Position numbers and translations under genes: made by a program. From Clostridia bacterium (lineage in GTDB: Bacteria; Bacillota; Clostridia; Christensenellales; QALW01), in assembly GCA_045536015.1 (NCBI GenBank), contig JAZSMS010000007.1:1-53637 (forward strand): a DNA stretch of 53,637 bases, written 5' to 3'. Position 1 is the first letter of the stretch. Every line of letters starts with the position of its first letter. The notes under the pieces were generated by a model. It was not told where the DNA came from, did no database searches, and was given only the letters and a program-made list of their open reading frames with translations. This document shows, piece by piece, positions 3,389-41,940 of this stretch.

Positions 3389-4300
3389 ATGAACAACGCA
3401 CTAATTTCAAAGGTAGAAACCGAATTTAATGCAAAGCGCACCCGCGCAAAAATTGAATACGATCAGCTTTTTGCTTTACTTTTAGAAAAGTACCCTACGC
3501 TTAATGAGCTTTTTGTAAAAAGAAGAAAAGCCGTTTGTGATTTTTCTTACGGTAAAGAAGCTCGTAAGCAGGCAATCAAATCGCTCGATGACCAAATTAC
3601 CTCATTTTTAAACGCAAACAATATTACTTTACCTGTAAAAAAACACGATTGTCCCATTTGTTTCGACGAAGGATACGTGGATAATAACGGCAAGCAAGAG
3701 CGTTGCTCCTGCTTTACGCGCAGGCTTATTGAGCTTTCTTCCGACGGTTGCTATGCAAATATTTCACAAAACTTTGATACCTTTAACTTATCTGTTTTTG
3801 AAAGCGAGCAACAAAATTTTATCCAAAAGCTTTACGACTATTCGCGTGAATACTGCGCAAAGTTTCCTTGTGTTAAACGTAAAAATATGATTTTTACAGG
3901 CAAAACGGGTACGGGAAAAACCTTCTTTTTAAATTCGATTTGCTGTGCTTTGCGATCGCGCGGGTTTAGTGTTGTATTTATTACTGCAGGCAGACTTTTT
4001 GAAATCTTGCGCAAATACGCTTTTTCTGAGGAAAACAATTTTGACTCGCTTTTGCAGGCAGATATGCTTATTATTGACGATTTAGGCAGTGAGCCACTGT
4101 TTAATAATATTACGGTTGAGTACCTTTTTATGCTAATTAATGAGCGTACTCAGCTTAATAAAGCAATTTGTATTTCTACAAATCTTACGCCTTCTCAGCT
4201 TGCCGAGAGATATACTGACCGAATTGCATCGCGCATTTTTGACGAAGCTAACTCCTACACCTTTAACCTTGCAGGAAAAGACCTTCGCATAAGGAAGTGA
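3389..4300 (+). CDS. dnaI: DnaI/DnaC-type helicase loader ATPase
   Basis: Walker A GKTGTGKTF and Walker B MLIIDDLG. N-terminal Cys cluster CPICFDEG...CSCF, consistent with the zinc-binding domain of DnaI. Confidence 0.75.
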   Translation: MNNALISKVETEFNAKRTRAKIEYDQLFALLLEKYPTLNELFVKRRKAVCDFSYGKEARKQAIKSLDDQITSFLNANNITLPVKKHDCPICFDEGYVDNNGKQERCSCFTRRLIELSSDGCYANISQNFDTFNLSVFESEQQNFIQKLYDYSREYCAKFPCVKRKNMIFTGKTGTGKTFFLNSICCALRSRGFSVVFITAGRLFEILRKYAFSEENNFDSLLQADMLIIDDLGSEPLFNNITVEYLFMLINERTQLNKAICISTNLTPSQLAERYTDRIASRIFDEANSYTFNLAGKDLRIRK

Positions 4301-4304
4301 TTTT

Positions 4305-5618
4305 TTGCTTAATAAAGTAAAACAATTTATAAAACAAAATAATTTGCTTTCTGAAAAACAAAAGGTCATCGTTGGTTTTTCGGGCGGTGCCGATTCTACG
4401 GTACTTTTATATTCACTTAAATCACTTGGCTTTTCGCCCGTTGCGCTTCACGTTAATCATCAGATTAGAGGTGCAGAAGCTCTTCGCGACGAAGAATTTG
4501 CACGCAATTTTTGTAAAAAGCACAAGATCCCATTTTATTCCGAAAGCATTTGTATCCCCGAAATTGCAAAAGAAAAATCACTTTCGCTTGAAACTTGCGC
4601 AAGACAGGAGCGTTATCGAATTTTTTTGGAATATTCTAAAAAATTCAATTGTCCCGTCGCGGTTGCTCACAACAAAAATGATCAGGCAGAAACCGTTTTT
4701 ATGCATTTAATTCGCGGTTGCGGGCTTAACGGCATTTGCGGAATGTTGCCAAAGACCGAAAATATTATTCGTCCCTTGCTTTCCGTTTCGCGCAGTGAAA
4801 TCGAAGCTTTTGCAAAAGAAAATAACCTCGATTTTGTTTTAGACTCAACTAATTTTATAGACGATTGCACAAGAAACAAATTAAGACTAAACGTACTTTT
4901 GCCACTTTATCAAAACTTTCCCGATGCGCTTGATAATATCTTTGCATCTGCAAATTTATTTAGTGAATACGCAAGTTTTATAAAAGAAGAATGTGATGAG
5001 CTTTTTGCAAAAAATTCTTATATTGAAGACGATAAGCTTTTTTTAAAGATAGAAAATTACAAAAAAATTGAATTTGCCGAGCTTATACGCCGTGCTTTTA
5101 CTTATGTTAACGGAAACACAGTTGACTTAGAGCGCGTGCACATCGAAGCTGTTATGGCACTTGCAAAATCAGGAAAACAGCTTGATTTGCCTTTTAACAC
5201 ACACGTTTTAAGGGTTTATGATAATCTTGTATTCTTTTCCGAAAACAATGATTTTTCGTTTTGTGAAAAATTTATTTCTTTTAAAGAATATACATTCAGC
5301 AATAAAACTATCATAAGCGCTTCTGCCCAAAAGCGTATTCCACAAGCAAAAACCGAATTTTTTGACCTCGATAAGCTTCCTGACGGCGTTTGCTTGCGCA
5401 CAAGACAAAGCGGAGATTTTATTCAGCCACTCGGTTTAGATGGTACTTGCACGTTAAAAAAATTTTTTATAGATAAAAAAGTTCCCATTACAAAAAGAAA
5501 CACTATTCCCTTGCTTGCAAAGGATACCGAAGTTTTGCTTATTTTGGGCTACACAGTTTCAGAAAAAATAAAAATTGATAAAAACACAAAAAATATATTA
5601 ATGATTCAGGAGAAATAA
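4305..5618 (+). CDS. tilS: tRNA(Ile)-lysidine synthetase
   Basis: PP-loop SGGADS near the N-terminus, TTG start, and the conserved tilS-hpt-ftsH order. Confidence 0.85.
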   Translation: MLNKVKQFIKQNNLLSEKQKVIVGFSGGADSTVLLYSLKSLGFSPVALHVNHQIRGAEALRDEEFARNFCKKHKIPFYSESICIPEIAKEKSLSLETCARQERYRIFLEYSKKFNCPVAVAHNKNDQAETVFMHLIRGCGLNGICGMLPKTENIIRPLLSVSRSEIEAFAKENNLDFVLDSTNFIDDCTRNKLRLNVLLPLYQNFPDALDNIFASANLFSEYASFIKEECDELFAKNSYIEDDKLFLKIENYKKIEFAELIRRAFTYVNGNTVDLERVHIEAVMALAKSGKQLDLPFNTHVLRVYDNLVFFSENNDFSFCEKFISFKEYTFSNKTIISASAQKRIPQAKTEFFDLDKLPDGVCLRTRQSGDFIQPLGLDGTCTLKKFFIDKKVPITKRNTIPLLAKDTEVLLILGYTVSEKIKIDKNTKNILMIQEK

Positions 5619-5620
5619 TT

Positions 5621-6169
5621 ATGTTAATACCTAGCGAAAAAACAGAAATTTTAATTACACAAGATCAAATTCAACAAAAAATTAAGGATATAGCAGAGCA
5701 AATTAACAAAGACTATAAAGGTCAGTCACTTCTTGTAGTTGGCATTTTAAAGGGTGCAGTTTTGTTTTATGCCGACCTTGTCCGTCAGCTTGATGTTGAC
5801 GTTCAATTTGATTTTATGCGCATTTCAAGCTATGGCAATTCGACCGATTCCACGGGTGAAATTAAAATAAGCAAGGATATTGACGTTTCTATAACGGGCA
5901 AGCACGTTTTAATCGTTGAAGATATTATTGATACGGGCCTTACACTTGATGCTCTTAAGCGCCTTTTATTAACACGCAGGCCTGCTTCGTTTAAAACCTG
6001 TTGTATGCTTGATAAGCCCTCACGCAGAAAAATTGATATCAAACCCGATTACTGCTGTTTTGAAATTCCTGACCAATTTGTTATCGGTTACGGTCTTGAT
6101 TATGCCGAAAGCGGCAGACAGTTAAAAGACGTTTTATACATTAAACCCGAATATATTCCCACTTTATAA
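5621..6169 (+). CDS. hpt: Hypoxanthine(-guanine) phosphoribosyltransferase
   Basis: 182 aa with PRPP-binding motif VLIVEDIIDTGLT. Sits between tilS and ftsH. Confidence 0.9.
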   Translation: MLIPSEKTEILITQDQIQQKIKDIAEQINKDYKGQSLLVVGILKGAVLFYADLVRQLDVDVQFDFMRISSYGNSTDSTGEIKISKDIDVSITGKHVLIVEDIIDTGLTLDALKRLLLTRRPASFKTCCMLDKPSRRKIDIKPDYCCFEIPDQFVIGYGLDYAESGRQLKDVLYIKPEYIPTL

Positions 6170-12186: not shown

Positions 12187-12220
12187 AAAAACCGTTGACT
12201 TTAGTCAACGGTTTTATTTT
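12187..12220. terminator. Bidirectional terminator between convergent genes
   Basis: aaaaaccgttgac (12187-12199), loop ttta, then gtcaacggtttt (12204-12215), with A/T runs on both sides. Confidence 0.75.
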
Positions 12221-13853
12221 ATCCGATTTTTTCAATAAGCTCTGCAACTCGCGTTGCCATTTGGTCGCAAGTTTTTTGGTTAGAACATTCTACCATAACG
12301 CGAACAACGGGCTCTGTACCGCTTTCTCGCAATAGAATTCTTCCCTCGCTGCCAAGTTCTTCTTCAACCTGTTTAACCAGCGCAAGCACCTTTTCGTTAG
12401 AAGTTATGAATGCTTTATTTTTAACAGGAATATTTTTAATTGTCTGTGGGAACATTTTTACCGGCTCGGCAAGTTCGGAAAGCGCAAGCTTGCGGTCGAT
12501 TATTTCTTCTGCAAGCATTATAGCTGTTAAAATTCCATCTCCCGTAGTAGAATATTTACTTATAATAATATGACCCGATTGTTCGCCGCCAAGATGGTAA
12601 TTATTTTCTATCATACAGTCGTGAACGTATCTGTCGCCCACCGTTGTCTGAACGTAGCCGATATTTGCCTGCTCGAGCGCCTGATATAAGCCCATATTAG
12701 ACATAATAGTGGTAACTATCTTATTGCCCGGCAGCAAGCCCTTATCTCGCAAACGCTTGCCGATAATATACATAATATGGTCGCCGTTTACAACGTTACC
12801 TTTTTCGTCAACTGCAATACATCTGTCAGCGTCGCCGTCAAAGGCAAAGCCTGCATCACAATGATTATCGCGCACGAATTTTTGAAGCATACTTATATGT
12901 GTCGAGCCTGCCTGCTCGTTAATATTAAGTCCGTCGGGCTCGGCATTTAAAATATGTACGTTTGCACCAAGTGCACTAAAAACAGATTTTGCTATCATCC
13001 ACGAAGCACCGTTTGCGCAGTCAAGCGCAATTGATAACTCACGGTAAGAATTTGCCGCAAGCGAAATTAAATAGCCTACGTAACGGTTTCTTCCTGCAAA
13101 ATGGTCAATAACTCTGCCAATTTTTTCACGCTTTGCAAGCGGAAGATCTTCACCCTCAAAATCAAGATTATCAAACTTTCCGTCAATATAATCTTCTATC
13201 AGAGCAAGCGTTGCATCGTCCATCTTTTCGCCAAGATGATTTACAAGCTTAATTCCATTATCAAAAAATGGGTTGTGCGACGCCGAAATCATTATACCGC
13301 AATCAAAATTTTCCTGCCTTACAACGTAGGATACACTTGGCGTTGTAGTAACGTGAAGCATATATGCATCAGCACCCGAGGAAGTAACGCCCGCAACTAT
13401 TGCGTATTCAAGCATATAGCTTGATCGACGAGTATCCTTACCTATAACTATTTGAGCTCTGTGATTTGCAAGGTTTTTCTTTGTAGGATATTTTGAATAA
13501 TACCAACCTAAAAATCTGCCGATTTTGTATGCGTGCATCGCAGTTAAATCAGTATTTGCCTCACCACGGAAGCCATCGGTTCCAAAATATCTGCCACTAA
13601 AAACAACAGATTCTTTTGGCTTAAAAAGTGTTTCGGTATAATTAGGTGCAAGAGGAATTTCATCACGCACAAGCTCATCAACACTTAAATTAAACAAGCT
13701 TGCAAGCTGAAGCACTTTACTTATTTCTGGTAATGCCTTATCGGTTTCCCATTTTGAAATCGATTGGCGCGAAACCTCAAGCTTTTCTGCAAGTTCTTCT
13801 TGCGAAATCTGCACCGAGGTTCTGAGTATCGAAATTTTTTGTCCTAAAGTCAT
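12219..13853 (-). CDS. glmM: XRE-family HTH domain fused to phosphoglucosamine mutase (GlmM-like)
   Basis: Refined start at ATG 13853 (SD GGATGGTG 6 nt upstream). Residues 1-62 (MTLGQKISILRTSVQISQEELAEKLEVSRQSISKWETDKALPEISKVLQLASLFNLSVDELV) form a Cro/C1-type HTH. The canonical mutase N-terminus RYFGTDGFRGEAN starts at residue 88. Active site is ISASHNPFFDNGIK and the Mg site is FDGDADR. Confidence 0.85.
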   Translation of the reverse strand: MTLGQKISILRTSVQISQEELAEKLEVSRQSISKWETDKALPEISKVLQLASLFNLSVDELVRDEIPLAPNYTETLFKPKESVVFSGRYFGTDGFRGEANTDLTAMHAYKIGRFLGWYYSKYPTKKNLANHRAQIVIGKDTRRSSYMLEYAIVAGVTSSGADAYMLHVTTTPSVSYVVRQENFDCGIMISASHNPFFDNGIKLVNHLGEKMDDATLALIEDYIDGKFDNLDFEGEDLPLAKREKIGRVIDHFAGRNRYVGYLISLAANSYRELSIALDCANGASWMIAKSVFSALGANVHILNAEPDGLNINEQAGSTHISMLQKFVRDNHCDAGFAFDGDADRCIAVDEKGNVVNGDHIMYIIGKRLRDKGLLPGNKIVTTIMSNMGLYQALEQANIGYVQTTVGDRYVHDCMIENNYHLGGEQSGHIIISKYSTTGDGILTAIMLAEEIIDRKLALSELAEPVKMFPQTIKNIPVKNKAFITSNEKVLALVKQVEEELGSEGRILLRESGTEPVVRVMVECSNQKTCDQMATRVAELIEKIG

Positions 13854-13877
13854 CAATTTCACCATCCTAACATTAAT

Positions 13878-13906
13878 AGTATATGCAAGAAATTGGTAAA
13901 GGTCAA
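13878..13906 (-). promoter_or_regulatory. Promoter of the HTH-glmM gene
   Basis: On the minus strand: TTGACC (13906-13901), a 17-nt spacer, then TATACT (13883-13878). Confidence 0.5.
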
Positions 13907-13927
13907 GCAATTAGAGTATACCAATTT
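13890..13927. promoter_or_regulatory. Perfect 9-bp inverted repeat (AAATTGGTA-N20-TACCAATTT) bracketing the -35 hexamer; candidate operator
   Basis: aaattggta at 13890-13898 and taccaattt at 13919-13927. The -35 hexamer (13901-13906) lies between the two arms. Confidence 0.5.
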
Positions 13928-21083: not shown

Positions 21084-21113
21084 TAAAAAAAACAAGTCCG
21101 CTTTAGCGGACTT
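21084..21113 (-). terminator. Intrinsic terminator overlapping the stop codon of the phosphatase gene
   Basis: aagtccgc (21094-21101), loop ttta, then gcggactt (21106-21113). The minus-strand T-run corresponds to the plus-strand A8 at 21085-21092. Confidence 0.7.
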
Positions 21114-21798
21114 ATTTATAAAATAAATTTTTTGCATTTTTAAAAAGATAATCCATTTGTTCTTCGTTTAAATATTTTGAAAGCAAATTAAAATTTATTG
21201 TACGTTGTTCTAAATCGTGAGCATCCGTTCCACAAAGATGAATAAGGCCTAAATCAATATATTGCTTGATCTTTCTCCTATCTCTGCGCTTTAAAAGCGC
21301 CGCATTGTCAAATTGCACAAGACAGCCAATATCATTAAGCCACACAAGACCTTTGTAATTAAAAAGCCATCTATATCGCTCTACGTGCGCGATTATCGGA
21401 ATAACAGAATAGTTTGCAAACAACTTATTTATTTGAGGCTCAAGCTTTTTTTGCTTTCTCATACTATCCGGCAATTCGATAAGCATATATCTCGTACCCT
21501 GATAGCATAATTCATCAAGGCTTTCGTTAGAAAAAATATTTCTCGAAAGCAACACTTCTGCACCAAGTCTTACCTTTATGCCTTCGTTTTGAAAAATAAG
21601 TTTTGTCTGTTTAAAAATTTTTTTGCGGTTTGCAATAAATTCATTAAGTTGGCCATGGTTAGAGTAAAAATGCGGTGTTAAGCAAACCTCGTCTACTCCC
21701 TGTTCTTTTAACAGTTTAACAAGTTCCAACACAGTTTTTTCATCTTTTGCGCCATCATCAATTCCTGGCAAAAGATGCGAATGAACATCAATTTTCAT
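21112..21798 (-). CDS. PHP-type protein-tyrosine phosphatase (CpsB/YwqE family)
   Basis: N-terminal MKIDVHSHLLPGIDDGA, plus further metal-binding His residues (AHVERY, GTDAH). Confidence 0.85.
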   Translation of the reverse strand: MKIDVHSHLLPGIDDGAKDEKTVLELVKLLKEQGVDEVCLTPHFYSNHGQLNEFIANRKKIFKQTKLIFQNEGIKVRLGAEVLLSRNIFSNESLDELCYQGTRYMLIELPDSMRKQKKLEPQINKLFANYSVIPIIAHVERYRWLFNYKGLVWLNDIGCLVQFDNAALLKRRDRRKIKQYIDLGLIHLCGTDAHDLEQRTINFNLLSKYLNEEQMDYLFKNAKNLFYK

Positions 21799-22490
21799 CG
21801 ATAATACTTGTATTTGTATGAATATTTGCCATAACGTTTTTCGTACGCACGACTTCCATTCAAAACAAAGCCTAATATTTTTGCATTAAAGCGTTTAAGA
21901 TTTTCAATTGCTTTATCAATTTCATTACGGTCAGAACGCTTTTCGTATGCAACAAATACAACGCCGTCAGAGTGTGAAATAAGAGCAAGCGCATCAGCAA
22001 CAACGTTGATCGGAGGTGTGTCGATAATTATATAGTCATAATCCTCTTCAAGCATCTCAAGAAGCTCAAAAAACCTCTCACTTGTAAGCAACTCCGAAGG
22101 ATTTGGCGATATAACGCCACCGCAAATTACCGAAAGATTTGTGTTAGGAACAGTTTGAATAATTTCGTTAAGCTCACACATACCGCTTAAATAGTTAGTT
22201 AAGCCGGGTGTGTTTTTTATTTTGAAAAATTTTGCAACGTCTGGCTTTCTTAAATCGCAATCAATTAAAAGCACGCGTGAATTTATCTGCTTTGAAAAAA
22301 CTGCGGCAATATTACAACTTGTAGTAGTTTTTCCAACGTGTGCAAGAGCGCTTGTTATAAGTATCTTTTTGCAACCCTTTTTAGCAACAGAAAGAGCAAT
22401 GTTCATTCTTGCGATTTTATAAGCTTCAACGGTGATGAAATTTACACTGCTATCCGAAATTTTTCTGTTTTTCTTAGCCATTTTTTTCAT
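21795..22490 (-). CDS. BY-kinase cytoplasmic catalytic subunit (CpsD/YwqD family)
   Basis: Walker A SALAHVGKTT, Walker A' LLIDCDLRKP, Walker B IIIDTPP, and a C-terminal Tyr cluster YGKYSYKYKYYR. Confidence 0.88.
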   Translation of the reverse strand: MKKMAKKNRKISDSSVNFITVEAYKIARMNIALSVAKKGCKKILITSALAHVGKTTTSCNIAAVFSKQINSRVLLIDCDLRKPDVAKFFKIKNTPGLTNYLSGMCELNEIIQTVPNTNLSVICGGVISPNPSELLTSERFFELLEMLEEDYDYIIIDTPPINVVADALALISHSDGVVFVAYEKRSDRNEIDKAIENLKRFNAKILGFVLNGSRAYEKRYGKYSYKYKYYR

Positions 22491-23196
22491 CCTCCGTTTT
22501 ACTTATATGAGAATAATAACTATTCTTATTTATTTTAATGTTAAAATCAGGAACTACTGCAATAATAGGAAGTCCGTATCTCTCCGTTAAGTCGGCTTCT
22601 TCATTGATCTTATGATCAGTAATTTCAAGTACAACAAACAAAGCTACTAAAACAATTGCCGTTGCACAAGCCGCTATAACTGCATTTAAAAACGGATTTG
22701 GTGCAGACGGGCTTGTAGGAATTTCGGGACTTTCGTAAACCGCAACGGTTATACGGCTTGTTCCACCAAGCATCTGTGATACAAATTCAGGTGCACATTC
22801 TCCAACAGCCTTTGCTACTGCATACGCACTTTCGGGAGAACTATCCGAAGCTACAATAGCAAGGTTGGTTGTTTCTTCCGTTGATTTAATAGAAATCGAT
22901 GGTTTGTGGTCTATTTGAGCATGATCGCGCACTGCCGTCAAAAAGTCTTTTGATTGAAAATATTGCTCGCAGTTTTTTACAACCTTACCCGCCGTAACAA
23001 GTCCGTTATTTATGTTTGCAAGCGTATCATCATCAACAGTACCGTTGATGGTTATTCCTATTTTTGCCGAATACGTCGGCGTAATTAAAAATTCGCTTCC
23101 AAAATAAGCACCTATTCCCAGGAGGAATGATAAAATTATCAAAAGCGTTATATGCTTTTTAATAATTTTAAGCAACTTTTCCAATGAAATTTCCAT
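22474..23196 (-). CDS. Wzz/CpsC-type chain-length determinant, transmembrane activator of the BY-kinase
   Basis: N- and C-terminal TM segments flank a periplasm-like domain. Overlaps the kinase gene by 17 nt. Confidence 0.8.
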   Translation of the reverse strand: MEISLEKLLKIIKKHITLLIILSFLLGIGAYFGSEFLITPTYSAKIGITINGTVDDDTLANINNGLVTAGKVVKNCEQYFQSKDFLTAVRDHAQIDHKPSISIKSTEETTNLAIVASDSSPESAYAVAKAVGECAPEFVSQMLGGTSRITVAVYESPEIPTSPSAPNPFLNAVIAACATAIVLVALFVVLEITDHKINEEADLTERYGLPIIAVVPDFNIKINKNSYYSHISKTEDEKNG

Positions 23197-33982: not shown

Positions 33983-35674
33983 CTAATTAAAATAATCTTT
34001 AAGTGAAGCAAGTAGTTGTTGTTCAATTTCTCTTGCCGCATCCTTTGTTTGTGCACTTACGGAAATATATGCCTTAACCTTGGGTTCTGTTCCCGAAGGA
34101 CGAATTACAACCGAGCAGTTATCATTAAGTATAAACTTGATAACGTCTGCCTTAGGTAAGCCGTTAATGCCAAGTGAATAGTCAAGCACTTCTTCAACAT
34201 TGCGCACCTTAAAGTCAGGCGTGCTTTCTCTGAACGATTTCATTATCTGCTGCATTTTAGCAAAGCCTGCTGAGCCTTCAAATTCAAACGAATAAAGGGT
34301 ATTCAAACAATAGCCAAATTCTTCGTAAAGTCCGTTAAGTTTATCAAGCAACGAAATGCCTTTGCTTGCATAAAAAGCAAACATTTCGCAAATCAAAAAC
34401 GCCGCATTAACCGCATCTTTATCGCGAACATACGTGCCCGAGAGATATCCGTAGCTCTCTTCAAAGCCAAGAATATACGAATCTTCTTTGCCCTGCGCCT
34501 CAAGCAAACCAATCTGCTCGCCAATAAACTTAAAGCCGGTTAAAATATCAATAGTTTTAACACCGTATTTTGCAGCAATACGCTTTGCCATATCAATAGT
34601 AACTATAGTTTTAACAACAACGGGATCACTTGGCATCTTACCCATAGCAATTCTGCGCGAGCAAATAAAGTCAAGTAAAAGCATACCAACTTCGTTACCC
34701 GTTAAAAGTACGTGTTCGCCCGAAGCATCCTTAACTGCAATTCCTACGCGGTCACAGTCGGGGTCAGTAGCAAGCAAAAGGTCTGCATTGCACTTTTTTG
34801 CATAGTCAAGACCAAGTTGAAGTGCTTCTCTAATCTCGGGGTTAGGATAAGGGCAGGTTGGGAAATTTCCGTTGGGCTGTTCCTGTTCTTTAACAACGGT
34901 TATATTAGAGAATCCGCTTTCGGTAAGAGCACGCAAAACAGGTTTAAGACCGGAGCCGTTTAAAGGTGTATACACTATTGCAAGGTCTTTATTAACCTTT
35001 TCGTCGCCAAGCATTGACTGCGCCTTAACTTCATTTGTAAAGTCAGTATAAATTTGCTCGGAAATATACTCAATTTTGCCGTTTTTAACGCCTTCTTCAA
35101 AATCAATACGCTTAATATCATTAAATACGTCAAGCTTTTCAATCTCGGCTAAAATTTCCTTTGCAGCCTCAGTAGTTATCTGGCAACCGTCATTACCGTA
35201 AACCTTATAGCCGTTATATTTTGAAGGATTATGCGATGCAGTAACCATAATGCCCGAAGCACATTTAAGCGCGCGTGTAGCATAAGATAAGCACGGTGTA
35301 GGCATCAAGCAGGGATAGATGTAAACCTTTATTCCGTTTGCCGCAAAAACGCCTGAAGCAATACGTGCAAATAGATCTGACTTAATACGCGAATCATAGC
35401 TTACGGCGATACTTCTTTCCTCGGGTGCAAAATGCTTTACAACGTAGTCTGCAAGACCTTGCGAAGCCTTTGCAACTGTGTAAATGTTCATTCTGTTTGT
35501 TCCTGCACCTATAACACCTCGAAGTCCGCCTGTACCAAACTCAAGGTCGCGGTAAAACGCATCTTCTATCTTTTCTTCGTTGCCTTCTATAGCTTTAAGC
35601 TCATTTGCAACATCAATATCTTCGATTGCGTTTTTTAGCCAACGTAAGTATTCTTGTAAAAATTCTTTTTGCAT
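33983..35674 (-). CDS. pgcA: Phosphoglucomutase / phospho-sugar mutase (PgcA-like)
   Basis: Refined start at ATG 35674 (AAGGAGA 6 nt upstream). Active site TASHNPSKYNGYKVY and Mg site TDPDCDR. Confidence 0.85.
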   Translation of the reverse strand: MQKEFLQEYLRWLKNAIEDIDVANELKAIEGNEEKIEDAFYRDLEFGTGGLRGVIGAGTNRMNIYTVAKASQGLADYVVKHFAPEERSIAVSYDSRIKSDLFARIASGVFAANGIKVYIYPCLMPTPCLSYATRALKCASGIMVTASHNPSKYNGYKVYGNDGCQITTEAAKEILAEIEKLDVFNDIKRIDFEEGVKNGKIEYISEQIYTDFTNEVKAQSMLGDEKVNKDLAIVYTPLNGSGLKPVLRALTESGFSNITVVKEQEQPNGNFPTCPYPNPEIREALQLGLDYAKKCNADLLLATDPDCDRVGIAVKDASGEHVLLTGNEVGMLLLDFICSRRIAMGKMPSDPVVVKTIVTIDMAKRIAAKYGVKTIDILTGFKFIGEQIGLLEAQGKEDSYILGFEESYGYLSGTYVRDKDAVNAAFLICEMFAFYASKGISLLDKLNGLYEEFGYCLNTLYSFEFEGSAGFAKMQQIMKSFRESTPDFKVRNVEEVLDYSLGINGLPKADVIKFILNDNCSVVIRPSGTEPKVKAYISVSAQTKDAAREIEQQLLASLKDYFN

Positions 35675-35728
35675 AAAAATTCTCCTTAAACTGTTCTTTA
35701 AACAAAGCATATATGTTTTGTTTAATTA

Positions 35729-35757
35729 ATTATACCAAATTTTAGTAAATTTTTCAA
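35729..35757 (-). promoter_or_regulatory. Promoter of pgcA
   Basis: On the minus strand: TTGAAA (35757-35752), a 17-nt spacer, then TGgTATAAT (extended -10, hexamer 35734-35729). Confidence 0.5.
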
Positions 35758-35764
35758 TAATAAA

Positions 35765-36895
35765 TTAAAGTCCGATAGCTTTAAAAAATTCTGTGGCACT
35801 TTTTGTCTGTTCTCTTTTAGATTTTAACGATTTTATCTTTTTTATAGAATGAGAATTATTTCCTTTAAAAATCTTTTTTAAAATTCTAACTAACCAGAAA
35901 ACAGGCAAAAGCAACGCATATTTTTTTACAGGCGGAAAAAGTTTTTCCATATCTCTTTTTTTAGGAAAAAACAATCGCAAAAGTGTCTGCTTTTCTTTTT
36001 CTTCGTTTGCTTGAGCAAAATTAGAAAAAGAGCCAAAGCTTCCTCCTCGCACTATATAATCTGCCATAGTATCAACGTCTGCATCTTCGTTTTTATCTTC
36101 CGAAAACCAAATACGCGAAAGTGCCTCTACTTTTTTAGAAAAAACTTTAAGTCCGCCTTCACGTAATAATTCTTCTCGTTTTTCTTTATCAAAACTGATA
36201 TTATTTAATAAAAACGTATCTAAAATTGCACGTACTCCGCAGCCGCCAAGTTCAAAGTGCTTGGCAAGATGCGCAATATGGTAAAAATACGTCATTTCAT
36301 CAGTTAAGCGATATTCATTTTCGCTAACCCTAATTGCGCTATCCCACACTTTTAAAAGCACTTTATTAGCATCTTTTGCGCAAGAATCTTCTATTAAGTC
36401 GTAATGAAGCTCTATTTTGATCTTGTTTGCATCAACGAATGAAACATCGTGCGTACTGCGAGAGTTAAATGCAAAACCTGCGCCTTTTGCCACTTGCTCA
36501 GCTTTTTCTATATCCTCTGACCTTACTAAAATATCAATGTCGTCGCTAATGCGCATCCATGCTTCACCATACAAATTTTTTATAACCGCGCCTTTAAGCA
36601 AAATATATGGAATATTTGCTTTTTTTAGTGCATTTGTCATATTTTCTTGCGCTTGTTGCTGCAAAATACTTTTAAAAACAGTCTTTTTCTTTTTTTGCTG
36701 TGCAATACCAAAAAGTTTGTTTTCTTCTATTTCATTTTTTTGCAAAATATCAAAAAGCAAATGTTCAAAGCCATGCCTTTTTAAAAAGGGTAGCAAACTT
36801 TCTATATCGGATGCCGAAAGGCTTTCTTTAAAATTTTCACCAACAGCAAGTTCTTTAATTTGTTTTAAAAGTTGTAATATTTTTTCGTCAATCAT
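35765..36895 (-). CDS. Nucleotidyltransferase-fold protein (resembles the uncharacterised NTP_transf_5-type family)
   Basis: 376 aa. Pol-beta-type signature ILLKGAVIKNLYGEAWMRISDDIDILV (G-[AS]-X10-13-D-x-D), followed by HYDL and a helical C-terminal half. Confidence 0.6.
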   Translation of the reverse strand: MIDEKILQLLKQIKELAVGENFKESLSASDIESLLPFLKRHGFEHLLFDILQKNEIEENKLFGIAQQKKKKTVFKSILQQQAQENMTNALKKANIPYILLKGAVIKNLYGEAWMRISDDIDILVRSEDIEKAEQVAKGAGFAFNSRSTHDVSFVDANKIKIELHYDLIEDSCAKDANKVLLKVWDSAIRVSENEYRLTDEMTYFYHIAHLAKHFELGGCGVRAILDTFLLNNISFDKEKREELLREGGLKVFSKKVEALSRIWFSEDKNEDADVDTMADYIVRGGSFGSFSNFAQANEEKEKQTLLRLFFPKKRDMEKLFPPVKKYALLLPVFWLVRILKKIFKGNNSHSIKKIKSLKSKREQTKSATEFFKAIGL

Positions 36896-36926
36896 TTTCT
36901 TTCCTATAAATAAAAAGCAAGAAGGC

Positions 36927-37664
36927 TTATGCCATTCTTGCTAAAATTATCTGCTCTGCTTCGATAAGTTCTTCGGGCGTGTTAACACCGCGAATTTCGT
37001 CACCGTCAGAAATCGGGAATAATTCTACCTTATATCCGTTTACAAGCATAAGTGCAGGAACGTCAGTAAGATAATATTCATTTTGATTATTATTGTTTTT
37101 AAGTTTAGGGAGAATATTAAAAAGTGCCTCGCTATCAAACACCGCAACACCCGAATTAAGTTCAGAAATTGCATACTGCTCTTTAGTGCAATCTTTTGCT
37201 TCAACTATGCCTGCAAATTTTCCACTTTTATCTCTTGTAATTCTTCCGTAAGATAATAATTCGGGATTAACCGCCGTCATAACCGTACACGCCGCACCCG
37301 ATTCCTCGTGTGCTTTAACCAGTGCCTCCAAAGATTCGCGTCTATAAAGTGGCATATCTCCGTAGGTTACAATAACAGAGCCCTTATATCCTTCAAATTC
37401 TTTAGCGCAGCAAGCAACTGCGTGTCCGGTACCGTTTTGTTCAAGCTGTTCAATATAATTAAACTCTGATCCAAACGCTTCTATTATCTGTTCTTTTTTA
37501 TATCCAACAACGATATACGTGTCCTTTTTTTCTACAAAGCCAACAAGTTCAAGTGCTATATCAAGCAAAGGTCTTCCGCACGCCTTGTGCATTACTTTAG
37601 GACAGTCATGCTCGGCAGAGTGAAGTCTCGTTCCCTTGCCAGCCGCCAACAAAATTGCCCTCAT
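36927..37664 (-). CDS. Sugar-1-phosphate uridylyltransferase, equivalent to the GlmU N-terminal (pyrophosphorylase) domain only
   Basis: Collinear with GlmU residues about 1-230: ILLAAGKGTRL, CPKVMHK, EQNGTGHAV, VTYGDMPL, YGRI, ELNSGVAVF, NNNQNEYYLTDV. It is 245 aa long, so the left-handed beta-helix acetyltransferase half is absent. Confidence 0.8.
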   Translation of the reverse strand: MRAILLAAGKGTRLHSAEHDCPKVMHKACGRPLLDIALELVGFVEKKDTYIVVGYKKEQIIEAFGSEFNYIEQLEQNGTGHAVACCAKEFEGYKGSVIVTYGDMPLYRRESLEALVKAHEESGAACTVMTAVNPELLSYGRITRDKSGKFAGIVEAKDCTKEQYAISELNSGVAVFDSEALFNILPKLKNNNNQNEYYLTDVPALMLVNGYKVELFPISDGDEIRGVNTPEELIEAEQIILARMA

Positions 37665-37677
37665 TTTTCCTCCACAA

Positions 37678-38808
37678 TTATAATAAATTTAATTCTTTAC
37701 GTATCTTTAAAGTTATTCTTTCTATCTCGCCTGCTTTTTCTTCCATATCGGCAATAAGTTTTAACTGTGTTCTTGCTCTATCAAGATTTTGTTTTGCACG
37801 ATGAATAATATAATAAGTGTCACCGTTAATATAATCGGTTAAAAATCTTATTCCGTCTTCAATAGTAATTATTCTGGATGCCCAAGGAAGAAGTTCTATT
37901 TCTTCTTTAGTCATAATCTCGCCACAGCTTTCTAAAAAGCCGCGCGTATATTTTTCATACAATTCTAAGTTACAAGATACCCTTGATAAATCACGTTCGT
38001 CGTCACACGCAGTATTGGTACCTATGCGAAGACTGTCACCATAATCGTACAATAACGATGACGGCATAACGGTATCTAGATCGATTACCGCAACCGGCAT
38101 ATTAGTATCTTTATCAAACAAAATATTGTTTAAATTTGTATCATTATGCGTAATACGCGTTGGAATGCGGCCTTCCTCAAGTGCCGATGAAATCATCTTC
38201 ATAATTCCGGTATGGTTGCGAATAAATTCTATCTCCGGCATAACTTCATGCACACGCTCTGCATGGTCTTCTTTTATTGCCCTTTCTAAATCAAGATAAC
38301 GCGAGTAAGTATTATGAAAATTGGGTATTGTTATATTTATCTTTTTTGGATCAATATCACTAACGTCACAGATAAATTTACCAAAACTTTTACCGCAAAG
38401 ATAAAACACCTCTGGGTTTTCGGGAATATCCATCGTATAAACGTGCGAAAAATACGTCATCATTCGCCAACAACCCGTATCTGTTTTAAGATAATCTTCG
38501 CCCGACAACGTTTTGACAATCATCGGAATACTGCCCAATTTATCTCTGTGCCCTTCAAGTAAAAACTTTTCGTGTAAATGCTCTGTTATAAGCACGAAAT
38601 TTTGCATAAGAGCATCCATATCTCTGAAAACGTTTGTATTAACTCTTTGAAGTGTATATCTGTGTCGCTGACCGTCTTCAGTATACGTTTCTACCAAAAA
38701 TGTACGGTTAATATAGCCATTGCCAATATTACGTATGATTTTAACTTTTCCTTTAATTTTAAACTGTCTTGCGATAAGTTCTTTATCGCTTACAAAAACT
38801 TCGGGCAT
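37678..38808 (-). CDS. nahK: N-acetylhexosamine 1-kinase (NahK-like anomeric sugar kinase, APH fold)
   Basis: Blocks recalled from Bifidobacterium NahK: RITHNDTNLNNILFD, VIDLDTVMPSS, YDYGDSLRIG, RFLTDYINGDTYY, NLDRARTQLKLIADMEEKA. SD GGGAGA lies 6 nt before the ATG. Confidence 0.8.
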   Translation of the reverse strand: MPEVFVSDKELIARQFKIKGKVKIIRNIGNGYINRTFLVETYTEDGQRHRYTLQRVNTNVFRDMDALMQNFVLITEHLHEKFLLEGHRDKLGSIPMIVKTLSGEDYLKTDTGCWRMMTYFSHVYTMDIPENPEVFYLCGKSFGKFICDVSDIDPKKINITIPNFHNTYSRYLDLERAIKEDHAERVHEVMPEIEFIRNHTGIMKMISSALEEGRIPTRITHNDTNLNNILFDKDTNMPVAVIDLDTVMPSSLLYDYGDSLRIGTNTACDDERDLSRVSCNLELYEKYTRGFLESCGEIMTKEEIELLPWASRIITIEDGIRFLTDYINGDTYYIIHRAKQNLDRARTQLKLIADMEEKAGEIERITLKIRKELNLL

Positions 38809-38895
38809 TATTATCTCCCTTACGTTTATTAGCTTGAAGACATTTTAATATTTTTTTAACAATTTAAAGTGCAACAAAACACAACAAGCGTTTAT

Positions 38896-38924
38896 ATGAT
38901 AGCATATTTTGTATTGCTCGTCAA
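38896..38924 (-). promoter_or_regulatory. Promoter of the nahK / uridylyltransferase / NTase operon
   Basis: On the minus strand: TTGACG (38924-38919), a 17-nt spacer, then TGcTATCAT (hexamer 38901-38896). The leader is about 85 nt. Confidence 0.5.
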
Positions 38925-39040
38925 TATAAATATCAAAAAACTACTGTATTTACGGCTTTTTTACATTTTTTACACTTTAATACAAAAAAGGTTTCCTTTT
39001 GTTAAGAATGACTTCCTATTAACAAAATATTCATTTTTTC

Positions 39041-39074
39041 CAAAAATAAACAAACCAACCATTTGGTTGGTTTG
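39041..39074 (-). terminator. Intrinsic terminator immediately after the small peptide gene
   Basis: 10-bp stem caaaccaacc (39051-39060) / ggttggtttg (39065-39074) with loop attt. A minus-strand U-rich tract follows (plus-strand ccaaaaataaa, 39041-39050). The hairpin begins 15 nt after the stop codon. Confidence 0.75.
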
Positions 39075-39088
39075 ATAACTTTTTATTA

Positions 39089-39199
39089 TTAATCTATTTG
39101 TACATAAGTAACTTCTGTCTCAGCACCAGAGCTATAATTTAAAACATCCGAAGCTTCTATCTTAATAACTTTAACCTCAGGCTTAACGTAACCTTTCAT
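39089..39199 (-). CDS. 36-aa candidate RiPP precursor peptide MKGYVKPEVKVIKIEASDVLNYSSGAETEVTYVQID
   Basis: Too short for the ORF track. ATG 39199-39197, TAA 39091-39089, SD GAGG (39210-39207) 7 nt upstream. It has its own consensus promoter and terminator. A YxxPxV motif occupies residues 4-9. It lies divergent to and adjacent to a PqqD gene. Confidence 0.7.
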   Translation of the reverse strand: MKGYVKPEVKVIKIEASDVLNYSSGAETEVTYVQID

Positions 39200-39255
39200 A
39201 ACAAAACCTCACTAACATTTTAATATGTTCGAGTACAAATTCATAAGTTATTTTT

Positions 39256-39284
39256 ATTATAACCTAACACCTATTAGTAGTCAA
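39256..39284 (-). promoter_or_regulatory. Consensus sigma-A promoter of the small peptide gene
   Basis: On the minus strand: TTGACT (39284-39279), a 17-nt spacer, then TATAAT (39261-39256). Confidence 0.65.
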
Positions 39285-39330
39285 GCATTTTTTATATTTT
39301 ATTAACACTTTATTTATATTTAAAACTTTG

Positions 39331-39359
39331 TTGTGTTTTTTTTTAATGTGGTATATAAT
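39331..39359 (+). promoter_or_regulatory. Promoter of the pqqD-like / peptidase genes
   Basis: TTGTGT (39331-39336), a 17-nt spacer, then TATAAT (39354-39359). Alternatively TGgTATATA read as an extended -10. Confidence 0.4.
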
Positions 39360-39389
39360 ATAGTCATAAAAGTTGTTGGAGGAAATACA

Positions 39390-39662
39390 ATGAAACTTAA
39401 AAAAGGTTTTGTTCTTCGTAAGGTTGCTGGAATGACGGTTGTTACTGCTACAGATTCTACCTGTGATTTTGATGGTATGATAACTTTAAACGAATCAGCA
39501 GAGTTAATGTGGAACAGACTTATTCTTGGTGCCACGATCTCTGACCTTGCCGACATCTTACTTAGCGAATATGACGTTGATAAACAAACTGCTATCAATG
39601 ATGCATCTGATTTTGTAAAACTTCTTAAAGAAAACGGAATTTTAGATGAAAGTACCAATTAA
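39390..39662 (+). CDS. PqqD-family protein (RiPP recognition element / peptide chaperone)
   Basis: Refined start at ATG 39390 (GGAGGA 39378-39383). The 90-aa sequence ITLNESAELMWNRLILGATISDLADILLSEYDVDKQTAINDASDFVKLLKENGIL matches the PqqD winged-helix pattern. Confidence 0.8.
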   Translation: MKLKKGFVLRKVAGMTVVTATDSTCDFDGMITLNESAELMWNRLILGATISDLADILLSEYDVDKQTAINDASDFVKLLKENGILDESTN

Positions 39663-40065
39663 TGAGCTTATCCCCTTAATTGAAGAATGTGCCGCAAATA
39701 ACGGCGCGTATTTTTCGCCTACCGGTATTAGTATGCTTCCCACTATAAAAAATGGCGATAAGGTTTTTTTGATAAAGCGCAACTTAAAAAAGAACGATAT
39801 AGTTTTTTACCGAAAAAACGGAGCAGCTACTATGCACCGCGCAATAAAGATAAATAGCGACTTTTTTATAGCACGCGGGGATAATCAATTTTGGACCGAA
39901 AACGTTAAATTTGAAGATATTATTGCCGTTGTTGACCATTATTTTCATAACGGAAAACGTATTAACTGCGATAGTTTTATATTTAAGTTTAATACTTTTT
40001 TTCTTCCCGTCACACGCGTTTTAAGACGCATTTTGCGTAAGTTTGGACTTTTAAATATTGCATAA
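39646..40065 (+). CDS. Soluble S24/S26-fold peptidase, SipW/ER-type (Ser-His) signature
   Basis: Motifs GISMLPTIKNGDKV (Ser box), ATMHRAIKI (His where bacterial SPase I has Lys) and ARGDNQ (GDN box). There is no N-terminal TM segment. Overlaps the PqqD gene by 17 nt. Confidence 0.65.
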   Translation: MKVPINELIPLIEECAANNGAYFSPTGISMLPTIKNGDKVFLIKRNLKKNDIVFYRKNGAATMHRAIKINSDFFIARGDNQFWTENVKFEDIIAVVDHYFHNGKRINCDSFIFKFNTFFLPVTRVLRRILRKFGLLNIA

Positions 40066-40086
40066 AATTAAATAAAATGCTATAAT
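40058..40086 (+). promoter_or_regulatory. Internal promoter in front of rfbA
   Basis: TTGCAT (40058-40063), a 17-nt spacer, then TGcTATAAT (hexamer 40081-40086). Confidence 0.5.
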
Positions 40087-40114
40087 TTACTTACCTTATT
40101 TTTTGGAGGTTTAT

Positions 40115-41008
40115 ATGATAAGAAAAAAAACAAAAGGTATAATTCTTGCAGGCGGCAAGGGCACTCGCCTTTATCCTATGACAAAAGTTGTTTCTAAACA
40201 GCTTTTATCTGTTTACGATAAGCCACTTATCTACTATCCCCTCTCTACACTTTTCCTTGCAGGAATTGACGAAATTTTAATAATTTCAACGCCTGAAGAT
40301 ACACCAAATTATCAGCGCCTTTTAGGTGACGGTTCTTCGCTTGGTGTCCGTTTTGAATATGCCGTTCAGGATAAGCCCCGAGGTCTTGCCGATGCATTTA
40401 TCATTGGCGAAAAGTTTATTGGTGAAGATAACGTTTGTCTTGTTTTAGGCGACAACGTATTTTATGGTCAAAACTTCTCGCAATTATTATTCAAGGCAAA
40501 GGCAAACGAAAGCGGTGCAACTGTTTTTGGCTACCCTGTTTCTGACCCACGCGCTTTTGGCGTTGTTGAATTTGACGAAAACCTTAAGGTTGTATCCTTA
40601 GAAGAAAAGCCTGCCGAACCAAAGAGCCCCTACGCAGTTCCCGGACTTTATTTTTATGATAACAACGTTGTTGAAATTGCTAAAAACGTTCAGCCTTCTC
40701 CTCGAGGTGAAATTGAAATTACAGCAATTAACAACGAGTATCTTCGCAGGGGCGAGCTTAACGTTGTTTTAATGGGCAGAGGTATGGCTTGGCTTGATAC
40801 CGGTACACCACAAGGTATGCTCACTGCTGCAACGTACGTTCAGTCAATTCAGTCACTTCAGGGCTTTTATATTTCTTGTATAGAAGAAATTGCATGGCGT
40901 CGCGGCTTTATCTCTACCGAGCAATTAATGGCACTTGGCAAGGAGTTAGAATCTACCGAATATGGAAAATACATAATCAACCTTGCTATAAAGGATAGAA
41001 AATTTTGA
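40115..41008 (+). CDS. rfbA: Glucose-1-phosphate thymidylyltransferase (RmlA/RfbA)
   Basis: Refined start at ATG 40115 (GGAGG 40105-40109). Motifs [54 protein letters not shown]. No rmlB, rmlC or rmlD in the window. Confidence 0.9.
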
Positions 41009-41697
41009 TTAAAACCTATAAAATTGCCGACTTAAAATTAAATATTGACGCATCTTCAATTACCGCACGCAATGGAAAAAAATACGAGGTTGAATTTGAC
41101 CCGAGCGCTATCGAATTAAAATTTTCACCCGAAGCGGCAAAGCGTTTTATTGACGCACACCCTACTGCAGAAATTGAAGATTGGGACTATTTTTTACACG
41201 GTGCAAAATTTTCTTCACTAATGTTAGAAAACGACGGCTTTGTCTTTCACTCATCCGCCATTGCACTTGACGGTCAGGCATTTTTATTCTCTGCTAATTC
41301 AGGTGTAGGCAAATCAACGCACACAAAGCTTTGGAAAAAGGTTTTTGATGACGTTGTTTATATCAATGACGATAAGCCCGCAATTCGCCTTAAAAACGGT
41401 TTATTTTACGTCTACGGCACCCCATGGAGCGGCAAAAGCACGTTAAATTCAAACATTTGCGTTCCTCTTAAGGCAATTTGCTTTATTGAGCGTGCAAAAA
41501 TTAATTCTATCCGCAAGTTAACTCCATTTGAAGCGCTTCCCCGTTTGCTTGAACAGACGATGCGCAAAGCAGGCGAAACAAAAACTGCACGTCTTTTAGA
41601 GTTGTTAGACGTTTTATTAACAACAACACCAATATATTTATTATCATGTCTTCCCAATGAAGACGCGGCAAAACTTGCACACGATACAATGATTTAA
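41005..41697 (+). CDS. HprK-related P-loop kinase-like protein
   Basis: [28 protein letters not shown] follows the pattern of HPr kinase C-terminal / HprK-related kinases (hHAsav...G.a.lf.G.SG.GKST). TTG start at 41005 overlaps the rfbA TGA stop (41006-41008). Confidence 0.6.
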
Positions 41698-41758: not shown

Positions 41759-41775
41759 AAACTGAGGTGATTTAT

Positions 41776-41940
41776 TTGGACGTTTGCTGCATCTGTCAAA
41801 AGGAAAAGCGGGATAATCTTTACATTTTAGGAAAATTAATTTGCGATGATTGTGAGTGGCGCATTTTAAAAGCAAAGGCACATGAGAAATCCTATACACA
41901 CTATTCAAACGGTTTAAAAAAACTTATATGCCAAAAATAA
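41776..41940 (+). CDS. csfB: Anti-sigma-G factor Gin (CsfB)
   Basis: Not on the ORF track. TTG start at 41776, 6 nt after GAGGTGA. The 54-aa product is MDVCCICQKEKRDNLYILGKLICDDCEWRILKAKAHEKSYTHYSNGLKKLICQK. It aligns with B. subtilis CsfB: CVICDQEK...LY.KFICLDCE...Y.FY...LK. Confidence 0.8.
   Translation: MDVCCICQKEKRDNLYILGKLICDDCEWRILKAKAHEKSYTHYSNGLKKLICQK

Follow-up and report, generated by a model that had tools for sequence, protein, structure and literature searches.

An rmlA gene overlaps the kinase gene of a linear polyphosphorylated peptide-type cluster in one family of Clostridia

We analyzed a stretch of 53,637 nucleotides from the genome of a Clostridia bacterium (assembly GCA_045536015.1, contig JAZSMS010000007.1, positions 1 to 53,637), referred to below as the window. 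In this window the gene for glucose-1-phosphate thymidylyltransferase, rmlA, ends within the start codon of a gene encoding a small kinase with the fold of HPr kinase/phosphorylase (HprK/P). The features at the center of this study are as follows.

40115..41008, forward strand: rmlA, glucose-1-phosphate thymidylyltransferase, assigned by TIGR01207 and a match to a solved structure in the PDB; the sole copy in the genome.
41005..41697, forward strand: lppK-like P-loop kinase of the HprK fold, 230 amino acids (Pfam PF27840, ScmC family), assigned by homologues and fold.
40058..40086, forward strand: candidate internal promoter TTGCAT-17-TGcTATAAT, with TTGCAT at 40058-40063, overlying the end of the preceding peptidase gene.

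The rmlA open reading frame (ORF; 40103/40115..41008) encodes a product of 297 amino acids. It includes all three RmlA motifs, LGDNVFYG among them, quoted in an earlier description made from the letters alone (hereafter, the sequence-only reading). The protein scores 459.8 bits against the rmlA equivalog model TIGR01207 (cut-off 360.65) and covers model positions 1-285 of 286, which bears out the claim of that reading that RmlA is full length. It matches the solved RmlA 1lvw with 424 bits and the structures of the E. coli and P. aeruginosa enzymes with 372-390 bits. Judged by these matches, it is a standard short-form enzyme with predicted activity on dTTP and glucose-1-phosphate. The start is likely ATG 40115, which is preceded by a GGAGG box; the alternative TTG upstream, at 40103, is less likely.

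None of rmlB, rmlC and rmlD was found within the window. They are contiguous, in the order rmlC-rmlB-rmlD, on a 5.2-kb contig of the same genome (C82), where each scores above its cut-off (234.5 bits for rmlC, 496.4 for rmlB, and 311 for rmlD). A profile search of the genome, which is 92% complete, detected one gene above the TIGR01207 cut-off, the rmlA of the window. Given this sole rmlA and the three genes on C82, the organism is predicted to be able to make dTDP-L-rhamnose, and its synthesis must depend on the window rmlA. The sequence-only reading had called rmlA an orphan, which is right for the window but not for the genome. It had also judged dTDP-glucose or another NDP-hexose a likelier product than dTDP-rhamnose; the search that it recommended for rmlBCD elsewhere in the genome finds these genes on C82, and together with the sole rmlA and the co-occurrence of rmlA with rmlB across relatives, this overturns the conclusion.

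The rmlA stop codon (TGA, 41006-41008) overlaps the start codon of the kinase gene (TTG, 41005-41007) within TTTTGATT, confirming the overlap that had been read from the sequence, and the 3' end of rmlA reads AAA TTT TGA. The TTG start is credible because alignments with homologues of the downstream protein begin at residue 1-2; the three closest homologues likewise begin MIKTY. As a Shine-Dalgarno sequence the kinase gene has just a weak AAAGGA box, 9 nt 5' of the TTG. The two genes overlap (TTGA, TGATG, TAATG, or ATGA) or abut (TAAATG) in all 10 of the loci in which the junction was read. We infer that rmlA and the kinase gene are translationally coupled. The TTG start and the weak AAAGGA box, used via re-initiation, suggest co-expression of the kinase at a lower level rather than in a 1:1 ratio, which speaks against the stoichiometric coupling proposed before.

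The candidate promoter has a perfect extended -10 element. Its -35 element fits TTGACA at three of six positions, and a promoter scanner omitted it for this reason. The element is kept in the closest relative, the metagenome locus L094, and is missing from a second metagenome relative, L096, in which the gap between the peptidase gene and rmlA is just 18 nt. In addition, TGNTATAAT occurs 11 times in the window. With this -35 element and this number of occurrences, TTGCAT-17-TGcTATAAT is a plausible internal rmlA promoter, although not a demonstrably strong one. The sequence-only reading, which gave rmlA a strong promoter of its own, was thus right about the presence of the element and overstated its strength.

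The genes around the pair resemble those for linear polyphosphorylated peptides (LPPs), a family of ribosomally made peptides with modifications added after translation (RiPPs), produced by the lppA-K-B-S-D-N cluster of Paenibacillus alginolyticus DSM5050 (Popov et al., Nat Commun 2026, PMC13381572). In that system the HprK-like kinase LppK adds several phosphates to Ser3 of the core peptide, and no rmlA is involved (Popov 2026, PMC13381572). The further features of the window locus are as follows.

39089..39199, reverse strand: lppA-like precursor peptide of 36 amino acids, MKGYVKPEVKVIKIEASDVLNYSSGAETEVTYVQID; an ORF with a TTGACT-17-TATAAT promoter and a terminator.
39390..39662, forward strand: lppB-like PqqD RiPP recognition element (RRE); PF05402, 52.4 bits against a cut-off of 23.4.
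39646..40065, forward strand: lppS-like homologue of SipW/archaeal-type signal peptidase I (leader peptidase); weak matches, each under its cut-off, to TIGR02228 (E 7e-7) and to Peptidase_S24 (E 1e-4).
37678..38808, reverse strand: APH-family kinase, a candidate NahK-like sugar kinase; PF01636, E 1.6e-13; kept in L094.
36927..37664, reverse strand: sugar-1-phosphate nucleotidylyltransferase resembling the N-terminal half of GlmU; GlmU models match residues 1-244 only and below cut-off; PF00483 and PF12804.
35765..36895, reverse strand: lppN-like NTP_transf_5 protein, a candidate phosphate-decorating transferase; PF14907, 132 bits.
33983..35710, reverse strand: phosphoglucomutase-family protein, encoded last in the lppN operon; PGM_PMM domains I-IV; it follows NTP_transf_5 in L094 too.

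By its gene content the window locus is of the LPP type: it contains A, B, S, and K parts and a candidate N part, in a rearranged order. This membership is based on architecture and on the loci of Paenibacillus doosanensis and of Clostridia. In the peptidase, the Ser29 (GISMLP), His64 (HR), and Asp79 (GDNQ) boxes are kept in five homologues. The lppN-like label reflects the PF14907 family and the position in the locus, and sets the protein beside LppN, and beside PsmN of the pseudomycoidin (psm) cluster, by description; in canonical loci the NTP_transf_5 family occurs near the kinase, after the K-B-S-D genes. The lppN-like gene of the window shares its operon with the genes for the APH-family kinase (which has a 35% identical paralogue on contig C123), the sugar-1-phosphate nucleotidylyltransferase, and the phosphoglucomutase. 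A second NTP_transf_5 gene of the genome (146.7 bits) lies at 1928-3085 of contig C84 (locus L111), 3' of a Wzx-type flippase gene and between a CapE/FnlA-like dehydratase gene and CapF-like and CapG-like (UDP-GlcNAc 2-epimerase) genes, away from RiPP genes. Its setting places NTP_transf_5 of this genome also inside a nucleotide-sugar/polysaccharide operon. A lasso peptide cluster was considered as well and rejected, as Pfam searches with tested ORFs from the 26.9-46.7 kb region assigned neither a macrolactam cyclase (asparagine-synthetase-like) nor a transglutaminase-like B2 protease.

The precursor position and leader are kept in the loci L094, L096, L017, and L105, with variable cores. The precursor peptides of L094 and L096 are MKSYVKPEVKVIKLESTDALLLSTTIDQDQIP and MKKYISPKVDVIKIVVEDILTASETIYEEDMIE, and those of L017 and L035 start with MKKIYSKPEVEVVELLNG and MKKPYEKPELEITRFETEDIAYS, respectively. 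The YxxPx[V/L] motif for RRE binding is present in the leader, which reads MKGYVKPEV...SDVLNYSS in the window, ...TDALLLST in L094, and ...EDILTAS in L096. In these window-type precursors other residues stand in place of the FET triplet seen in the published logo, which makes theirs a variant motif. Ser23 is kept in three precursors of the genus of the window and falls in the same place as the modified serine of the published logo; this conservation and position make it the predicted phosphorylation site. In a canonical locus of the Oscillospiraceae (L086, 2284-3810), three precursors surround the kinase gene, with a common YTKPE leader and differing acidic cores.

The kinase falls among 3264 homologue clusters labelled PF27840 (ScmC), a newer Pfam label, and its invariant motifs are HSSA, the P-loop SGxGKSTH, NDDKP, and GTPWSGK. 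It has no match to Pfam Hpr_kinase_C or Hpr_kinase_N, and PDB searches with its sequence or its family profile returned nothing meaningful and no match to HprK/P. Its AlphaFold (AF2) model has a mean predicted local distance difference test (pLDDT) score of 95, and the best Foldseek matches of this model are HprK/P catalytic domains (1kkm, E 1.4e-5, probability 1.00), followed by phosphoenolpyruvate carboxykinases, which are known fold relatives. The label HprK-like is thus correct at the level of the predicted fold. The kinase of the K-B-S-N locus of P. doosanensis is 44% identical; a scan for close relatives seeded with that kinase returned solely the P. doosanensis genome and one metagenome-assembled genome. 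Literature searches on ScmC, SynChlorMet, and PF27840 gave unrelated acronyms only, and one on PF14907 gave nothing related. By homology, we predict that the window kinase is the counterpart of LppK and (poly)phosphorylates a serine of the precursor. It shares the P-loop catalytic-domain fold with HprK/P but differs from it in the N-terminal region, in its size of just 230 amino acids, and, by homology to LppK, in its substrate, which would be a RiPP precursor presented by PqqD and not HPr.

HprK/P-type enzymes can take pyrophosphate (PPi) as phosphoryl donor, as established for HprK/P of B. subtilis. One conceivable reason for the gene pair is that the kinase builds serine polyphosphate from the PPi released by RmlA and so pulls the RmlA reaction forward. 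We regard this hand-off as highly improbable. It has the gene coupling, the HprK/P fold, and the published polyphosphorylation (PMC13381572) in its favor and nothing further, while many cellular reactions yield PPi, which makes a dedicated source needless, LPP systems function without rmlA, and there is no sign of a physical complex between RmlA and the kinase.

A search with the exporter of the canonical locus L097 found no MsbA-like exporter on the window contig, with matches on other contigs only. With no such exporter (LppD) encoded at 33983-41697, the peptide may be retained intracellularly or exported by other means. Genes for a Wzz-like protein, a CpsD-like tyrosine kinase, and a CpsB-like phosphatase lie at 21112-23196 on the reverse strand, 12-17 kb from the LPP locus, placing the peptide cluster in a polysaccharide-regulating neighborhood as in Bacilli, where LPP clusters are often found within capsule loci (PMC13381572). 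Directly 3' of the kinase gene, at 41767-41940 on the forward strand, is the gene for Gin (CsfB, anti-sigma-G). This neighbor is kept in L094, L096, and several loci of the sister genus, so that the rmlA-kinase pair adjoins a sporulation gene in several loci. The window also encodes, at 12219-13910 on the reverse strand, a protein of 563 amino acids in which an XRE-type helix-turn-helix (HTH_3, residues 28-79) is joined to a complete four-domain phosphohexomutase, an arrangement unusual for PGM/PMM proteins.

Linkage within the family was followed in 40 relatives. The family comprises the genus of the window (g1), its sister genus (g3, 16 genomes), and three other genera (g2, g4, and g5). rmlA is present in all of g1 and g3; in this survey neither rmlA, rmlB, nor the kinase was found in g2, g4, and g5. 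The kinase was detected in the window genome and in 13 g3 genomes, and its gene lies directly 3' of rmlA in all 14 of them. With the junction kept in 10 of 10 loci, this upholds the earlier description of a tightly coupled rmlA/HprK-like pair. rmlA and rmlB are on separate contigs in every one of the 15 family genomes in which both were found, while they lie no more than 2 kb apart in six of the seven other families of the order. In L094 and L096, whose kinases are 79% and 65% identical to that of the window, the genes are arranged PqqD-peptidase-rmlA-kinase-gin, as they are in the window. The divergent sugar operon of the window recurs in L094, with an additional gene at 3918-5891 (reverse strand) for a PglF/CapD-like dehydratase (Polysacc_synt_2, 657 amino acids) between the nucleotidylyltransferase and NTP_transf_5 genes. 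The absence of this gene from the window hints that the sugar of the operon differs between close relatives.

The g3 loci consist of PqqD-rmlA-kinase only, between IleS-methyltransferase-RluA and gin. They have no NTP_transf_5 gene and no peptidase gene, and a precursor is detectable in two of eight loci. In three g3 genomes rmlA is at the same IleS-methyltransferase-RluA site, and PqqD and the kinase are both missing. The persistence of rmlA without LPP genes in these three genomes indicates that it does not depend on them. Such losses, and their fixation in one subclade, could also mean that the LPP genes around rmlA are functionless remnants in decay and that the overlap is left from an old rearrangement. 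We consider this unlikely, since the kinase frames are open and keep every invariant catalytic motif across 14 genomes at ~50% identity, and since the window, L094, and L096 keep the complete A-B-S-K-N set, a conserved leader, and the promoter and terminator of the precursor gene.

In the RmlA tree all enzymes of the family are monophyletic (support 100/99), and those of the three kinase-less g3 genomes make up a single subclade within g3 (100/99); this pattern agrees with one capture and one subsequent loss. Between g1 and g3, RmlA is ~80% identical and the kinase 46-54%; RmlA is conserved like a housekeeping enzyme. The family enzymes group with those of other Clostridia families, not with most genomes of the same order, which are the ones with a contiguous rml operon. 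A vertical origin of rmlA from the contiguous operon of the order was set aside on account of this placement, which suggests replacement or transfer but may also reflect a noisy RmlA phylogeny.

Peptidase homologues elsewhere in the g3 genomes were considered as a dispersed part of the LPP system, as they were detected in all 13 kinase-bearing and in none of the three kinase-less genomes. The candidate was rejected. In the four g3 genomes inspected, the homologue adjoins a gene for a Bac_transf-like sugar transferase, and the surroundings include no precursor, PqqD, or kinase. As the three genomes that lack the homologue are one subclade, shared ancestry may account for the co-occurrence, which is not used as evidence here. 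This distant SipW-like paralogue (26-39% identity) lies beside a sugar-transferase gene in the g3 loci L107-L110 and in L088 (15746-17047); the neighbor is Bac_transf by Pfam in L088 and similar by sequence in the g3 loci, and represents a separate association of peptidase and polysaccharide genes.

The kinase family is abundant outside this family (at least 599 species were matched in one scan, and 149 of 399 genomes sampled across the class carry the kinase). Outside the family the canonical gene order is peptide-K-B-S-(ABC exporter)-N. We compared 80 kinase-bearing genomes from 50 genera of the class. In none of these 80 genomes is rmlA adjacent to the kinase gene or on the same contig; rmlA is present anywhere in 20 of them and absent from the other 60. 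PqqD is next to the kinase in 52 of 80 loci, and an exporter is found in 30 of 80 related loci. Wzz/CpsD/CpsB/LCP/Bac_transf-type genes occur within 10 kb in 14 of 80 loci, which, along with the Wzz-CpsD-CpsB genes of the window, echoes the capsule association reported for Bacilli. We also considered a general enrichment of RmlA- or GlmU-like genes near LPP kinases and rejected it, as the instances found (6/80 loci) all belong to the family of the window, and class-wide there are none (0/80 genomes).

The rmlA-kinase linkage arose once, is old and tightly maintained, and is not a general property of LPP clusters. Conservation of the adjacency, which the sequence-only reading had proposed to check, is complete among the kinase-bearing genomes of the family and nil in the 80 outside it. 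That reading had explained the pair by a common substrate stream, which is not supported as a general link: no adjacency exists in the 80 other genomes, 60 of them have no rmlA at all, and three relatives of the window have rmlA without the kinase.

The explanation that we favor, with a probability of roughly 0.55, is that a housekeeping rmlA was captured once into an LPP operon and is co-expressed with it. rmlA would have been separated from rmlC-rmlB-rmlD in the common ancestor of g1 and g3 and fixed inside an LPP-type operon, with the PqqD and peptidase genes before it and the kinase gene after it. It would be transcribed with the LPP genes and, in the window and L094, probably also from its own extended -10 promoter. 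The kinase would be translated by termination and re-initiation at TTTTGA, and thus be made only when rmlA is translated, probably in smaller amounts. The main job of RmlA would be to provide dTDP-glucose to RmlB, RmlC, and RmlD for dTDP-L-rhamnose. The kinase would (poly)phosphorylate a serine, predicted to be Ser23, of the leader-bound precursor of 36 amino acids, and the SipW-like peptidase would then remove the leader. On this evidence the linkage appears to reflect co-regulation and history rather than a shared substrate.

Several observations weigh against this explanation. The linkage has survived divergence of the kinase to ~50% identity and a change of the flanking genes, longer than neutral synteny usually lasts. 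In the window and L094, lppN is accompanied in its operon by three or four genes for sugar activation, and the cluster is flanked by the phosphoglucomutase and by RmlA, which would jointly make dTDP-glucose. In the pseudomycoidin system, PsmN is needed for the addition of one or two hexoses (+162 and +324 Da) to the phosphate made by the kinase (Zyubko 2019, PMC6993621). LppN, an uncharacterized NTP transferase, had no effect in the heterologous host B. subtilis, and its authors proposed that a rare substrate was absent there (PMC13381572).

In a rival explanation, RmlA, fed by the phosphoglucomutase of the cluster, would be a dedicated supply of a dTDP-hexose (dTDP-glucose, or dTDP-rhamnose via RmlBCD), which the LppN-like protein would put on the phosphoserine made by the kinase, with co-translation matching donor to acceptor and rmlA serving a dual role. 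We hold this possible but doubtful. The tightness of the pair in 14 genomes and 10 junctions fits it, as do the operon that lppN shares with the APH kinase, nucleotidylyltransferase, and phosphoglucomutase genes, the added dehydratase of L094, the nucleotide-sugar operon around the second NTP_transf_5 gene on C84, the requirement for PsmN, and the inactivity of LppN. However, rmlA is missing from 60 of the 80 other LPP-kinase genomes and the adjacency from all of them, the PqqD-rmlA-kinase loci of g3 are without an NTP_transf_5 gene or peptidase and often without a detectable precursor, three genomes keep rmlA without the kinase, and the NahK-like/GlmU-like pair of the cluster could make the donor itself. 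A related proposal, that the LPP pathway recruited the rmlA of the cell and that dTDP-hexose (glucose or rhamnose) is the missing co-substrate for LppN-like attachment to phosphoserine, we advance only tentatively. The sequence-only reading had suggested phosphoserine formation followed by sugar transfer. This sequence of steps fits the published chemistry, that is, phosphorylation by LppK (PMC13381572) and hexose addition to phosphate (PMC6993621), but nothing shows RmlA to be the source of the donor. In the window, the sugar operon of lppN and the flanking phosphoglucomutase and RmlA lend the idea some local support. If a sugar is added, the transferase is likely the NTP_transf_5 (LppN-like) protein and not the kinase.

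If the linkage is purely historical, it carries a lesson for annotation: rmlA without adjacent rmlBCD is no evidence for dTDP-glucose as end product. The expression of a housekeeping sugar-nucleotide gene appears to have been tied to a peptide-modification operon over the lifetime of two genera, which is in keeping with the recurrent occurrence of LPP clusters beside loci for envelope polysaccharides. LPPs were first described in 2026; the Clostridial version described here offers dTDP-glucose, dTDP-rhamnose, and UDP-HexNAc derivatives as donor candidates. If instead the pathway recruited rmlA, it would yield a linear, phospho-glycosylated peptide with a tie to the rhamnose pathway of the cell wall, and the cluster would name the 'rare substrate' missed by the discoverers of LPPs. 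The wiring is seen in one small family only and is at most a lead to the LPP sugar donor.

Like the known system of P. alginolyticus, the window locus has a precursor with the YxxPx[V/L] leader and with a conserved serine shortly after the predicted cleavage site. It also shares the discrete PqqD element, the SipW-like peptidase with Ser, His, and Asp, the HprK-like kinase, the lack of a cyclase and B2 protease, and the nearby polysaccharide genes; its NTP transferase is a candidate LppN. LppS, which is SipW-like with catalytic S29/H68/D93, cuts the leader after T-1 with the aid of the PqqD protein LppB (PMC13381572); the predicted triad of the window peptidase is Ser29/His64/Asp79. The differences lie in the end of the leader (xSD[V/A/I]LxxS in window-type precursors versus FETxxS in LPP) and in gene order, which is A(divergent)/B-S-rmlA-K in the window instead of A-K-B-S-D-N, with no MsbA-like exporter in the locus. 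Moreover, the lppN-like gene of the window belongs to a separate operon that is divergent and includes sugar-activating genes, an inserted rmlA is coupled to K, and the host belongs to a Clostridia lineage and not to the Bacilli.

In pseudomycoidin and paeninodin biosynthesis, as predicted for the window, a serine in the peptide is the target of an HprK-like kinase, and PsmN is a protein of the nucleotidyltransferase fold (PMC6993621). Unlike the window locus, those systems have a macrolactam cyclase, a lasso product, and a modified serine at the C-terminus; their clusters contain neither rmlA nor another sugar-nucleotide gene (PMC6993621). With the canonical rmlA-rmlB-rmlC-rmlD operon (rfbABCD), the window genome shares all four enzymes, each above its equivalog cut-off, but rmlA is split from rmlC-B-D in all 15 family genomes in which both were found, whereas the genes are contiguous in six of seven other families of the order. 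The LPP kind of cluster is already known, and what is new is the order with rmlA inside it, coupled to the kinase gene.

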